From a virus (Duplodnaviria > Heunggongvirae > Uroviricota > Caudoviricetes), in IMG/VR virus record IMGVR_UViG_2778261202_000005: a stretch of 6,129 nucleotides of DNA; one strand, given 5' to 3'. The position numbers and the translations under genes are program-made. Of this stretch, positions 1,974 through 6,129 are shown one piece after another. The notes under the pieces were generated by a model that was not told where the DNA came from, did no database searches, and saw only the letters and a list, made by a program, of their open reading frames with translations. How positions within the stretch are numbered: the stretch's first letter is position 1; each line of letters starts with the position of its first letter.

Positions 1974-2219
1974 ATGCTTCAAATGCTGACACTTGAGGAA
2001 TGGGCTGCGGAAAAATTTAGGAGTAATCCTCCAAGTGTGTCCACATTGCGCCGTTATGCTAAGCAGAATTTATTTTGTCCACCGGCAATGAAACAAGGTC
2101 GACTATGGCGAGTGCGTGAGGACGCAGAGTTAGTTGGGGAATTAGTTACCCCTGTCATCAAGAAAAGTGATTCTATTATTCTACAAAGGATTTTAAGTAA
2201 TGGCAGCCAGACCACGTAA
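1974..2219 (+). CDS. xis: Excisionase (lambda Xis-like)
   Basis: The segment MLTLEEW...TLRRYAKQNLFCPPAMKQGRLWRVRE aligns by eye with lambda Xis (MYLTLQEW...TVRRWVRECRIFPPPVKDGREYLF). It overlaps the int start by 20 bp, as in lambda. The start is ambiguous: in-frame ATGs at 1959, 1974 (GAGG 9 nt upstream) and 1983 (best homology alignment). Confidence 0.8.
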   Translation: MLQMLTLEEWAAEKFRSNPPSVSTLRRYAKQNLFCPPAMKQGRLWRVREDAELVGELVTPVIKKSDSIILQRILSNGSQTT

Positions 2220-3327
2220 AAATAATGTTTCAGTCCCGAACTTGTATCCGCTCTATAGCAGAAAAGTAAATAAAGTCTATTGGCGATATAAGCATCCAGT
2301 GACCGGGAAGTTTCATTCTTTGGGCACAAACGAAGCTGAAGCCATTGCCATTGCCACTGAGGCCAATACACGCCTGGCTGAGCAAAGAACCCGGCAGATT
2401 CTGGCCATCAGTGACAGGATAGCAACCAGCAAAGGGAAAGCAATCACAACGTCAACCTGGTTAGATCGCTACCAAGCGATCCAGGATGACCGACTGAAAA
2501 GTGGTGATATAAGACTCAACACTTATAAGCAGAAAGCCAAACCAGTATCCTTACTTAGGGAACGAGTAGGAATGAAGTTGATCTCAGCCGTTGATGTCAG
2601 AGATATAGCACAATTGCTTGACGAGTATATCGCTGCCGGGCAGCCGAGAATGGCGCAAGTCGTAAGGTCTGTATTGATCGATGTATTTAAGGAAGCACAG
2701 CATTATGGCGAAGTTCCGCCAGGGTATAACCCTGCTCTTGCGACGAAGCAACCCAGACGGAAAATCACCCGTCAACGCCTCAGCCTCGAAGAATGGAAAA
2801 AAATCTTCGATATCGCAGATGCCAGTCATCGTTACATGGGAAATGCCATGCTCCTAGCATTGGTCACTGGACAGCGTTTGGGGGACATATCTAAAATGAA
2901 ATTCAGCGATATTTGGGATGACCATCTACATGTCGAACAGGAAAAGACTGGAAGCAAAATCGCAATTCCTCTTTCTCTTCGCCTCAATACGATTAACTGG
3001 AGTTTACGCGATATAATAGCCCGCTGCCGTGACTATGCAGTCAGTCCATACCTAGTGCATTTTTTCCGTTCAACTTCACAAGCAGAACGTGGGGCACAGG
3101 TTAAATCCAATACATTGACGATGAACTTTAGCAAAGCGCGAGACTTGGCCGGAATTGATTGGGGTGATGGAACTCCAGCAACTTTCCATGAACAAAGATC
3201 TTTATCTGAGCGCCTTTATAGGGAACAAGGGATTGATACGCAAAAACTACTCGGACATAAATCTCCTAATCAGACAGCTAGATATCATGATGATCGTGGA
3301 AAAGATTGGGTAACTCTAGCAATTTGA
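2200..3327 (+). CDS. int: Site-specific tyrosine recombinase, lambda Int family (375 aa)
   Basis: Clear similarity to lambda Int along the whole length: N-terminal arm-binding region (PNLY), WLDRY, HVEQEKTGSKIAIP versus lambda YVEQSKTGVKIAIP, and the C-terminal catalytic region PATFHEQRSLSERLYREQ...LLGHKS...ARYHDDRGKDW with the tyrosine in RYHDDRG. Confidence 0.95.
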   Translation: MAARPRKNNVSVPNLYPLYSRKVNKVYWRYKHPVTGKFHSLGTNEAEAIAIATEANTRLAEQRTRQILAISDRIATSKGKAITTSTWLDRYQAIQDDRLKSGDIRLNTYKQKAKPVSLLRERVGMKLISAVDVRDIAQLLDEYIAAGQPRMAQVVRSVLIDVFKEAQHYGEVPPGYNPALATKQPRRKITRQRLSLEEWKKIFDIADASHRYMGNAMLLALVTGQRLGDISKMKFSDIWDDHLHVEQEKTGSKIAIPLSLRLNTINWSLRDIIARCRDYAVSPYLVHFFRSTSQAERGAQVKSNTLTMNFSKARDLAGIDWGDGTPATFHEQRSLSERLYREQGIDTQKLLGHKSPNQTARYHDDRGKDWVTLAI

Positions 3328-3369
3328 TTTTTATATTTTTATTAAAAATTAAAAAATTCAGACGCATCA

Positions 3370-3382
3370 TATCAAAAATTTA
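3370..3382 (+). promoter_or_regulatory. IHF-binding-site-like motif
   Basis: TATCAAAAATTTA fits the IHF consensus WATCAANNNNTTR. Such matches also occur by chance in AT-rich DNA. Confidence 0.3.
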
Positions 3383-3411
3383 TTAGTAAAATAGATAACT
3401 AATATTTTTCT

Positions 3412-3428
3412 TGGGGGGAGGAGCCCCC
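3412..3428. terminator. GC hairpin (GGGGGG-AGGAG-CCCCCC) between the convergent int and membrane-protein genes
   Basis: A 6-bp all-GC stem with a 5-nt loop inside otherwise very AT-rich DNA. It lies between the 3' ends of int (+) and the 4TM gene (-). No clean T-tract follows on either strand, so it may be a structural or processing element rather than a canonical terminator. Confidence 0.3.
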
Positions 3429-3461
3429 CGCACATTATATTGAAGATTAATAACTGATATA

Positions 3462-4427
3462 TCATTTCTTAAATTTAAGAATTTCTTTTAAGGCTTCTAC
3501 TATATTTTTATCCCCATCCATGCTAATTTTCTCCTTCTCAAGAGAAACCGTAGTCTGCCCTTTTTCAAGAACAAAATTACGTTCTGTAGCCATGAGATTT
3601 TTAATAACCTCACCCATTAAGTCTTCGTTTCTAATGCCCTTAAGAAACTTTATCGCCAAAACTTTGGAATCGATATTGGTAAGCTCATTTTGAAAATACT
3701 TGACCTCATCAAAACCATTTTTGTACAACTTCAAGAAGAAATAAGCAAATAGTTCAACGACAATTACAAATGATAATTTGGGGGCCATGTGAAGTATATA
3801 TTCAAGCTTATCATTTGTGTTAATAGCATTTGTAACTGAATATCCAAGGTAAAGTATCCCACAAAAAGCAATAAATGCACCTAAAACCAGATTAACCCCA
3901 CCACGTCTATTTAATCTATTTATTTCATTTTCTAAACGATATACAATATCATTATAGTGTTTACTAATTTCTATTTGATTTCTAAACGAATTTATATCAT
4001 TTTTCAAACTTAAATCTGCAGCCAAGAGAGTATTGCCTACAATCTTTTTTTTAGCATTATCGATCAACTCTTGCCTTTCTTTTGATGTGAGTAAAACACC
4101 ATTTAAATCTTTCGAATCATTTGTAACTAGTTGATTAAACTCTTGCTTTAAGGAGTCTAATTCTGACTTTAACTCTTCATATGAGTTAACATTCTTGTTT
4201 TTACTTTCACCTATTCCTTTATTAACATAATTTAATAAAAATGCTGCCATAAAAGTTAAAATCAGAGTTGCAATAAAGAAACTATTTTCATCTTGAAGTA
4301 TTTTAGCAACAGTGGAAAAATAACTTACGAGAAGAGGCTGAGCATTATAAAGCCCCATTCCTAACAAAACTGCAATTGCCGTACCTAAAACGAACCTTAC
4401 TTCTTGTCTTTTTAGTAACCTATTCAT
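3462..4427 (-). CDS. Four-helix membrane protein with a central coiled-coil-like cytoplasmic segment (321 aa); candidate membrane effector
   Basis: Complete ORF (ATG 4425-4427, stop 3462-3464), very AT-rich. Predicted hydrophobic helices at about residues 12-37, 50-68, 178-198 and 218-235. A positively charged N-terminus (KRQEVR) suggests N-in topology. Residues 70-175 are charged and heptad-like; a C-terminal soluble domain of about 85 aa follows. No enzymatic motif is recognisable by eye. Confidence 0.85.
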   Translation of the reverse strand: MNRLLKRQEVRFVLGTAIAVLLGMGLYNAQPLLVSYFSTVAKILQDENSFFIATLILTFMAAFLLNYVNKGIGESKNKNVNSYEELKSELDSLKQEFNQLVTNDSKDLNGVLLTSKERQELIDNAKKKIVGNTLLAADLSLKNDINSFRNQIEISKHYNDIVYRLENEINRLNRRGGVNLVLGAFIAFCGILYLGYSVTNAINTNDKLEYILHMAPKLSFVIVVELFAYFFLKLYKNGFDEVKYFQNELTNIDSKVLAIKFLKGIRNEDLMGEVIKNLMATERNFVLEKGQTTVSLEKEKISMDGDKNIVEALKEILKFKK

Positions 4428-4544
4428 TATGACACCATATGTTATTATTTAACGTTTTATTAAATTCAAAATACTGCCCGAGATTTTAATACTCATAACA
4501 AAATAAGAATTAATATACAAAATTTTTCATACTACAAGCAAGGC

Positions 4545-4576
4545 TTTGATAAATTGTTTTGATAACGATTTGATAA
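4545..4576. promoter_or_regulatory. Array of three TTTGATAA direct repeats upstream of the membrane-protein gene
   Basis: TTTGATAA occurs at 4545-4552, 4558-4565 and 4569-4576 (spacing 13 and 11 bp), with a fourth copy at 4623-4630. The array sits 118-150 bp upstream of the minus-strand start at 4427. The first copy (TTGATAAATT) also resembles the H-NS high-affinity motif TCGATAAATT. Confidence 0.3.
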
Positions 4577-4595
4577 CCGTTAGAAATCTAATAAT

Positions 4596-4626
4596 AAAAA
4601 CGGGAGCCATCAGACTTCCGTTTTTG
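4596..4626. terminator. Bidirectional intrinsic-terminator-like hairpin
   Basis: AAAAACGGGAG-(8-nt loop)-CTTCCGTTTTT: an A-tract, a stem of about 11 bp with one wobble or mismatch, then a T-tract. On the minus strand the stem is followed by TTTTTATTATT. It lies about 365 nt downstream of the NTase stop and 170 nt upstream of the membrane-protein start. Confidence 0.45.
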
Positions 4627-4930
4627 ATAACCCGGAGCCTAGATTTGGCTACCCCAGCAGGAAGATGCAACGTCCACGATTGTCACAAATCAGGCTGGCC
4701 CGAGGCAGAATGGCGACTGTGAGGGAGAAACGAAAGTTCACACTCGTTCTCACTGCTGATGGGGGGTTCACTAACAATCTCAAGCACTAATTAATGGACG
4801 AAACTCTACACAAAGCCCCATTTTGTAGGAAAACTGGTAACGGATTAGTAATACTACCCGGCCAGAACATGACCGACCGGGTAAAAAAATATCCTGACGC
4901 TACTAAGCCTTTAAGATTTGACTAACCTAG
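4596..4930 (-). ncRNA. Candidate structured non-coding RNA or long 3' UTR element (hypothetical)
   Basis: A GC-rich island (about 50% GC by eye, against about 25-30% in the flanks) with no ORF of 60 aa or more. On the minus strand it is bracketed by promoter-like -10 boxes upstream and the terminator-like hairpin downstream. It contains a further hairpin (ACCCGG...CCGGGT at 4856-4882). Boundaries are approximate and expression is unproven. Confidence 0.25.
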
Positions 4931-4937
4931 TGCTTAC

Positions 4938-4977
4938 ATTATAGAGAACTGCTTATGCCTTCTAAATTATAGAGTAA
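4938..4977 (-). promoter_or_regulatory. Tandem sigma70-like promoter elements just downstream of the NTase stop
   Basis: Two perfect TATAAT hexamers on the minus strand (plus-strand coordinates 4966-4971 and 4938-4943), each in a CTCTATAAT context. The second has a TTTAGA -35-like hexamer 17 bp upstream (4/6 match to TTGACA). Confidence 0.3.
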
Positions 4978-4989
4978 AAATACTCACCA

Positions 4990-6129
4990 CTAAAATACAA
5001 CTTGCTTCCTTAGTAAATCACCTCTAGCATTTGAGTAATATTCAGTCGAATTGCCAGTAACTTCCCGGAGTACTTCTGTTACAAGGTTATTTAGTATTCC
5101 CGTAAGTTTAAGAAACTCTCCATATGAATTAGGTTTCTCAAATATCTTTCTGGTACCGTTCGGCACATCGAGCTGCATTGCAGCATCATGATCCTGGGCT
5201 AAGTGATTTAGCCAGCGGTGAGTCTCAACAAGTACAGCAAGTTCATAGTATGTACTATGACGGAGATTATTAGCATCTGCATGGTACATTAGTGAAGCAA
5301 TATCATAGCTGCTTAGATCAATACTCGAACCTTCGTCTCCACTGTCTGCTTTCAGGGTTTTGAGCATGCGAATTGATTTTCTTAATCCACCATTGCATTG
5401 ATCGCATTTGTCTTTGATACGTTGCATGTGGAGGAACGGTTCATTGTAGATACGCTCTCGTTTGTTTTTATCAATTATGGTAACTCCACGATGTTCTTCT
5501 TTTTTTGTGAGTTGGTACTCTTTCGTATCCCACCATATGCCTGGCACTACATCAACTTCTCTTTGAAGACTCCCCCCCGTTATTCTCAAGGACTTGGCGT
5601 TATTATCGTCAACCTGAGCAGCAGGAAATGTCATTTTTAGAGCATCTCGAGCTGCACGCCTAAGTTCAATGATGACGTCTCGGCCATCTTTCTCAGCTGC
5701 ACTATAGCTGCCAACTCCACCGCTATCATACATAAGCATCTGAGTATCAATAATTAAAAGATCTACATCACTGAAACCTTTGATATGGATATCTAGGGGA
5801 ACAGAACCTTGTACCCGAAAATCTAGGTTTAGGTCTAATTTCTTAGTCAGCTGATTTTCAATACGATACGCGGTTTCGAATGAGATCTCTGTATAGCGGG
5901 GGTCAACTGGTTGCATCGCACCAATGACATACCGGATAGCTGAATCGTCTCTTCCTCTAGACTCCCAACTTTCATTAAGCTCAAGAGCATCTTCAAGCAA
6001 TGCATATTTTTCAAGGCCATCATATCTTTGATTACTCATTGATTCTGTGGCTACTCGCAACTGATCATATGTCCCTTTACGACGTGACTTCATGCGTTCA
6101 ATACGCGAACTATATGATGAATTAGACAT
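4990..6129 (-). CDS. Pol-beta superfamily nucleotidyltransferase, CD-NTase/SMODS-like (379 aa)
   Basis: Motif QGSVPLDIHIKGFSDVDLLI (G108-S109, 11 residues, then D121-V-D123) and a third acidic residue in EVDVVPG (D193) match the GS...DxD...D active-site pattern of cGAS/DncV/OAS-like enzymes. An alpha-helical C-terminal region of about 180 aa follows. The ATG is at the window edge (6127-6129), so an upstream extension or upstream partner genes cannot be excluded. Confidence 0.85.
   Translation of the reverse strand: MSNSSYSSRIERMKSRRKGTYDQLRVATESMSNQRYDGLEKYALLEDALELNESWESRGRDDSAIRYVIGAMQPVDPRYTEISFETAYRIENQLTKKLDLNLDFRVQGSVPLDIHIKGFSDVDLLIIDTQMLMYDSGGVGSYSAAEKDGRDVIIELRRAARDALKMTFPAAQVDDNNAKSLRITGGSLQREVDVVPGIWWDTKEYQLTKKEEHRGVTIIDKNKRERIYNEPFLHMQRIKDKCDQCNGGLRKSIRMLKTLKADSGDEGSSIDLSSYDIASLMYHADANNLRHSTYYELAVLVETHRWLNHLAQDHDAAMQLDVPNGTRKIFEKPNSYGEFLKLTGILNNLVTEVLREVTGNSTEYYSNARGDLLRKQVVF

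Follow-up and report, generated by a model that had tools for sequence, protein, structure and literature searches.

A U-tract-free G:C hairpin in the 3′ UTR of a prophage cargo gene, best explained as a further example of the U-less 3′ stem-loop

What does a perfect, all-G:C palindrome do in the AT-rich gap between two convergent genes of an Escherichia coli prophage, and to which of its neighbors does it belong? We studied this question in a stretch of viral DNA of 6,129 nucleotides (IMG/VR record IMGVR_UViG_2778261202_000005), which, at its full length, is referred to here as the window. The initial annotation had correctly singled out the hairpin, and had placed it at 3412-3428; direct reading of the sequence moves it one base to the right, with GGGGGG at 3413-3418, AGGAG at 3419-3423 and CCCCCC at 3424-3429, and the locus with its flanks reads cttGGGGGGAGGAGCCCCCCgca. 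Its location between convergent genes, also recorded in the annotation, was confirmed, and the features that frame it are:

2200..3327, + strand: intE, a tyrosine integrase of lambda type that belongs to an e14-like prophage and converges with the cargo gene
3328..3412, no strand: AT-rich spacer from the int stop to the hairpin, 15% GC without the hairpin, poorly conserved in relatives
3413..3429, no strand assigned: G6-AGGAG-C6 inverted repeat, 6-bp all-G:C stem and 5-nt loop, in RNA of either strand
3462..4427, - strand: 321-aa cargo gene (phrog_5157), helical protein with predicted membrane segments, the hairpin lying within its 3′ UTR
4990-6129, - strand: CD-NTase of a CBASS pair (PADLOC cyclase, E=6e-137), partner Cap15

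On the + strand the hairpin begins 86 nt past the intE stop; the - strand RNA version, GGGGGG-CUCCU-CCCCCC, begins 33 nt past the stop of the cargo gene. Comparison with shuffled sequences revealed that the pattern G6-N3-8-C6, which occurs once in the window, was present in none of 200 dinucleotide shuffles, and that a perfect 6-bp stem built only of G and C with a 3-8 nt loop, again found once in the window, arose in 10 of 1000 whole-window shuffles and in 2 of 5000 shuffles of 3300-3600. These counts bear out the earlier expectation that such a stem is unlikely to be accidental: the hairpin is real and non-random, and a chance origin is very unlikely. Its z-score against dinucleotide shuffles is modest (-1.8 in the window) because such shuffles preserve GG and CC. 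The folding energy is about -11 to -13 kcal/mol and similar on both strands, the + strand hairpin being slightly more stable than the - strand one in the window; in the fold, a U3412-G3430 wobble is a possible seventh pair in + strand RNA. The surroundings, previously put at roughly 20% GC, are AT-rich as described and in fact lower still, since the spacer between the two stop codons (3328-3461; 134 nt) has 15.4% GC once the hairpin is removed. An Rfam search (E<=1) gave no match at the hairpin.

The window is identical to a stretch in three complete E. coli chromosomes, and the part from 3200 to 3700 is present in only 3 of 5426 E. coli genomes. In CFSAN061772 (L001) an e14-like lambdoid prophage is integrated at icd; the window corresponds to its left end, and the order is yfdQ, yfdR, xisE, intE (+), hairpin, 321-aa gene (-), about 560 nt of non-coding DNA, the CBASS pair and icd. 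The IntE protein has the lambda Arm-binding and catalytic domains. The sole match of the 321-aa protein was phrog_5157, a family whose function is not known; searches of Pfam, PADLOC and NCBIfam returned no family for it, and AlphaFold2 produced a low-confidence all-helical model (pLDDT 66, pTM 0.34). Homologues of phrog_5157 are spread widely over bacterial phyla, and its neighbors in the cargo slot include AbiTii (L107), a CAP12/PCTIR TIR protein (L022), a HEPN protein (L004) and, in the window, CBASS.

About 2280 E. coli genomes, K-12 with its e14 included, match the int part of 2700-3470, and these matches end at 3304-3314, which precedes the int stop and thus lies inside int rather than at the hairpin. 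The match to phage vB_EcoM-689R6 stops at 3309; in this phage int is followed by a DUF262 gene of the same orientation, without such a hairpin, and K-12 has there a convergent lit gene with its own, different hairpin and a U-run. The hairpin was not found in the other intE prophages compared. Homology with intE prophages ends before the int stop, so the hairpin has its place in the variable cargo module and shows no linkage to int. Among the homologues of the cargo gene, the distance from hairpin to cargo stop is tight (about 20-35 nt) and the distance to the int stop is variable (47 to 85 nt), and a hairpin is still present at loci whose int is degraded or missing (L022, L205 and, in E. coli, the paralogue in L003/L005). 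Judged by these sequence comparisons, the hairpin is part of the cargo module and goes with the cargo gene, not with int or att.

A protein search yielded 465 homologues of the cargo gene, and contig look-ups assigned those of 58-86% identity to Enterobacter, Kosakonia and Leclercia; the majority share one slot (icd, gene, convergent int). Close relatives were gathered by exact-protein look-ups; genome and metagenome scans contributed mainly distant homologues (28-50% identity), which were of little use for alignment of the 3′ UTR. We then read and folded the 90 nt past the stop of each homologue. Homologues with 52-86% amino-acid identity (Enterobacter, Kosakonia, Leclercia, E. coli) carry a stable hairpin from about +20 to +35 nt past the stop, and a U-tract is missing from nearly all of these hairpins. 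Quantification revealed that in 10 of 16 distinct close relatives the observed hairpin energy was reached by at most 3 of 60 shuffles, and that 6 of the 16 had no hairpin better than shuffles. The hairpins, with positions counted from the stop of the cargo gene or its homologue, are:

Window, +33: GGGGGG-CUCCU-CCCCCC
E. sichuanensis (L022), about +30: UUGGGGG-GGAA-CCCCCAA
E. roggenkampii (L024), +31: AUGGGGU-AAAGUGC-ACCCCAU
L202, 3′ hairpin of the cargo homologue: UGGGGUA-AUCUG-UACCCCA
L112, +28: 10-bp stem with two G-U pairs around GGGG/CCCC
L109/L110, +28: CGCAUGGA...UCCAUGCG
Kosakonia (L203) and Leclercia (L205), +35: 18-bp hairpin
L207 and L120, +19 to +26: AGAAAGC...GCUUUCU
E. coli paralogue at the other prophage end, no int nearby (L003/L005), about +31: UGCAGGUGC-UUGU-GCAUCUGCA

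Alignment of the subgroup with G-runs showed that, in a 3′ UTR that varies elsewhere, conservation is confined to the G-run and the C-run; loop sequences vary (CUCCU, GGAA, AAAGUGC, AUCUG, AAUAUA), as do the lengths of the runs among relatives (G7/C5, G5/C4, G4/C4). In other subgroups the stems are unrelated to these (CGCAUGGA/UCCAUGCG, the 18-bp stem, AGAAAGC/GCUUUCU), and the 18-bp stems of L203 and L205 are set apart by two double substitutions, both compensatory (C-G to A-U and G-C to U-A), without any disruptive one. The conservation among related phages that the initial annotation had named as a check is therefore there for structure and position near cargo homologues, but not for sequence, and this combination indicates that what accompanies the cargo gene is a structural RNA element. 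When the best hairpin of each strand was compared in the relatives, the sense version was more stable in 8 and the antisense version in 5; the two G-U pairs of L112, which form on the cargo-sense strand, and the GGAA tetraloop of L022 favor the cargo-sense strand, and the window itself slightly favors the + strand.

The same comparisons bear on the possibility that the palindrome has no selected function and is a chance or slippage-made pair of homopolymers carried along with AT-rich foreign DNA. The hairpin is identical in every copy found (three E. coli genomes and four IMG/VR contigs), so comparison within the lineage gives no test, and both the varying run lengths and the six relatives without a significant hairpin are in keeping with an absence of function. 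We nevertheless consider this explanation improbable, given that the two runs are the only conserved blocks in the alignment, that unrelated hairpins with compensatory changes occupy the same position in other subclades, and that the chance expectation is very low. A greater, if still small, likelihood attaches to the proposal that the hairpin itself terminates transcription. Six G:C pairs and a 5-nt loop are what the stem of a canonical intrinsic terminator consists of (at least 5 bp, G:C-rich, loop of 3-8 nt), but a U-rich tract (about 5 of 8, 0-2 nt past the stem) is absent from both strands: the sequence right after the stem is GCACAUUAUAUU on the + strand and AAGAAAAAUAUU on the - strand, the stem tails in the U-tract test were GCACAUUA (+) and AAGAAAAA (-), and a promoter/terminator scan of 3000-5100 returned 0 terminator sites, in agreement with the earlier remark that neither strand has a clear U-tract. 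Without a U-tract, the hairpin is not a canonical intrinsic terminator. The layout of a bidirectional terminator, with an A-tract upstream and a U-tract downstream, is likewise absent, since UUUUUCUU lies upstream on the + strand; the polarity of the flanks is reversed, with a T-run upstream and an A-run downstream on + and AAGAAAAA after the stem on -, and no correctly oriented A-tract was found upstream of the stem. The hairpin could still be a weak intrinsic terminator, or a bidirectional pause or collision element that ends both int and cargo transcription. It sits exactly between the convergent stops and folds on both strands, like the G:C-rich hairpins of intrinsic and bidirectional terminators of convergent genes in SEnd-seq work; a nascent-RNA stem-loop was reported to position head-on collisions at convergent E. 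coli genes (bioRxiv 10.1101/2022.10.23.513370). Some relatives (L024, L202, L112) also have a U-run 15-25 nt further on. It departs from bidirectional intrinsic terminators both in lacking a U-tract after the stem on either strand and in the opposite polarity of its T-run and A-run. Efficient intrinsic termination by E. coli RNA polymerase requires a U-tract, a requirement that counts against the hairpin, and we regard termination at the hairpin itself as unlikely.

Two further proposals, both raised in the initial annotation, connect the hairpin to int or to att. If it were a retroregulator, int-sense read-through RNA would expose an RNase III site at the hairpin, from which 3′-5′ decay of the int mRNA would follow. 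Like lambda sib/tI, it is a structured element downstream of a lambda-type int gene, and it forms on the + strand. Lambda sib is a long RNase III substrate beyond attP, which integration parts from int, and RNase III substrates are about two helical turns long. In contrast, only 6-7 bp pair here, far from an extended duplex of about 20 bp, and folds of 3328-3461 contained no extended duplex. The order int, hairpin, cargo, att-arm relic (4545-4630), CBASS, icd puts the hairpin on the int side of att; because of this place between int and att, integration cannot uncouple it from int, and the connection holds in the prophage as it does after excision, in contrast to lambda sib. It travels with the cargo gene and is not conserved with intE in prophages carrying other cargo. 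Retroregulation of int by RNase III is thus very improbable, and we do not retain it. Scarcely credible is the proposal that the hairpin contributes to the attachment or recombination site, or marks a boundary at which cargo cassettes are exchanged. The hairpin does lie in the variable cargo slot between int and att, near the homology break between intE prophages; the break itself, though, is inside int, at 3304-3314. The description "att-proximal" was too loose, the icd junction being 3.7 kb away in the source genome and the nearest att-arm-like relic, where conserved arm-like TTTGATAA repeats accompany a relic icd terminator at 4545-4630, 1.1 kb away. The hairpin does not behave as an arm or core site of attP or attL for IntE, which would be a sequence shared by elements with the same integrase and beside the icd junction: it is absent from other intE prophages, and what relatives preserve is its structure and not the letters, an argument against a site for a sequence-specific protein. 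It also has no integron attC core motifs.

Positions 3160 to 4622 of the window are collinear with the Enterobacter int-gene-icd interval. TTTGATAA is present five times in the window, compared with 0.64 expected, and four of the copies fall in the conserved att-side block:

4545-4552, + strand: TTTGATAA repeat
4558-4565, + strand: TTTGATAA repeat
4569-4576, + strand: TTTGATAA repeat
4623-4630, + strand: TTTGATAA repeat
1965-1972, - strand: TTTGATAA repeat, at the start of xisE

Between three of the copies the phasing is 11-13 nt, and the block does not vary between copies, from E. coli, Enterobacter and metagenomes, of the DNA immediately past icd. The repeats in 4545-4630 are candidate IntE arm-type sites of the P′ arm. 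The att-arm block with the relic icd terminator (about 4590-4622) is duplicated (window 4542-4622; L001 10343-10404 and 12854-12916), and a sub-threshold Rfam match to STnc150 (E=4e-6) covers 4477-4632. One att-arm copy adjoins the real icd and the other separates the 321-aa gene from the CBASS pair, so that the two bracket the 2.45-kb module of Cap15 and CD-NTase, an arrangement that suggests a tandem or relic element at icd.

Some other identities were considered for the hairpin itself. Like REP elements, it is an extragenic palindrome that could block 3′-5′ exonucleases; unlike them, it has 17 nt, carries no REP consensus and is single-copy rather than dispersed in many copies (with its flanks it was found a single time in each of only 3 genomes among 5426 of E. 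coli). We discarded the idea that the AGGAG loop precedes a small ORF (16 nt spacing to a TTG, 6-8 codons, loop not conserved), an anti-Shine-Dalgarno-like role of the CUCCU loop on the - strand, again for want of loop conservation, and a cassette site like the attC of integrons, whose core motifs are missing on direct reading of the sequence.

A known kind of element accounts best for these features. Mapping of E. coli 3′ ends has shown that Rho-dependent transcripts end directly after stable stem-loops, which resemble terminators, lack the U-tract and the upstream A-tract, and are followed by sequence with more C than G; once transcription has terminated diffusely further on, such stem-loops keep PNPase and RNase II from degrading the RNA (Dar and Sorek, 2018; PMC6061677). 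Conserved 3′ stem-loops were also reported in a 2026 study at both Rho-independent and Rho-dependent 3′ ends (PMC13613805). The hairpin in the window is stable (-11 to -13 kcal/mol), lies in the 3′ UTR soon after a stop codon, has neither a U-rich tail nor an upstream A-tract, and belongs to an element with an E. coli host, all as in the Rho-dependent cases (PMC6061677). It differs from these, which are mapped 3′ ends, in that it is predicted from sequence and sits in AT-rich prophage cargo between convergent genes. Because it fits the description of Dar and Sorek, we take it as the protective stem-loop that defines the 3′ end of the cargo mRNA; most likely, in our judgment, it acts in the 3′ UTR of the cargo gene as the stem-loops ending Rho-dependent E. 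coli transcripts do, and it is best explained as one more U-less 3′ stem-loop. The composition of the DNA beyond the hairpin is also of interest here:

3470..3670, + strand: C-rich, G-poor stretch, antisense to the cargo gene, C/G 1.6-2.7 in 78-nt windows

Downstream of the hairpin on the + strand, C/G amounts to 2.1-2.7 at 3470-3670, in the top decile of the window, and this stretch resembles a Rho-utilisation (rut) site that read-through RNA of int sense would carry. On the - strand, which is cargo-sense, C/G downstream is about 1, so the rut-like signature is seen in the int-sense direction only; the excess of C over G that follows Rho-dependent ends (PMC6061677) is found here on the + strand and is missing from the cargo-sense strand. 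The earlier suggestion of a factor-dependent terminator is compatible with the U-less stem-loop and with the C-over-G sequence after it on the + strand; the comparisons tie the hairpin to the cargo gene and not to int.

We infer an action at the level of RNA, a barrier to exonucleases and an involvement of Rho, each of them in the following scheme. Leftward transcription of the cargo gene would turn the inverted repeat into a stem-loop in the 3′ UTR of its RNA; transcription would halt diffusely further downstream, via Rho or collision with convergent polymerases; PNPase and RNase II, the 3′-5′ exonucleases, would trim the RNA back to the hairpin, which would then fix and stabilize the 3′ end of the mRNA and separate convergent transcription. 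In the Rho-dependent model the hairpin would be a protective end structure and not the site of termination. The same DNA can serve int-sense RNA because the stem is all G:C, near-symmetrical and placed between convergent genes, and the hairpin is probably also usable by int-sense read-through RNA, which would next enter the C-rich, G-poor antisense stretch.

Read as the protective 3′ stem-loop of the cargo mRNA, the hairpin has little significance beyond annotation: a conspicuous G6/C6 palindrome would be the 3′-end structure of a cargo gene and not an integrase switch or part of att. It would also mean that the U-less 3′ stem-loops of core E. coli genes are packaged with mobile prophage cargo as well, where they are upheld by structure and not by sequence, and that the hairpin helps to set the transcript boundaries of an uncharacterized gene (phrog_5157) whose 321-aa product is a candidate single-gene defense or abortive-infection protein. 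A bolder proposal, to which we give little credence, is that the hairpin is a portable two-strand insulator traveling with defense-type cargo in the int-att slot of e14-like prophages. Were this true, int would be shielded from antisense transcription out of the cargo gene, the int read-through mRNA would be stabilized after Rho termination in the C-rich antisense stretch, and the hairpin would be a positive counterpart of lambda sib that lets cargo be swapped without disturbing the control of int.

Other structured or repeated sequences were observed besides the hairpin under study. A second stable hairpin without a U-tract, ACCCGGCC...GACCGGGT, is located at 4846-4872, about 115 nt past the CD-NTase stop; on the - strand it is longer and contains G-U, and a U7 run precedes rather than follows it. 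It falls within 4623-4990, about 370 nt of comparatively GC-rich non-coding DNA (to 51% GC) from the CD-NTase stop to the att-arm relic, which was found only in the three E. coli genomes that carry the window and whose fold z-scores are unremarkable (-1.6 and -1.1). An exact scan of IMG/VR for the 17-mer, GGGGGGAGGAGCCCCCC, found 16 loci, four of which are the same prophage; the 12 others, including a three-copy repeat in the unrelated contig L011, have unrelated flanks and were taken as coincidental. In L011 the 17-mer lies at 2148-2164, 3995-4011 and 4405-4421, and there conserved flanks lengthen the stem (CACAGGGGGG...CCCCCCUGUG), making it a separate repeated element unrelated to the intE/cargo locus.
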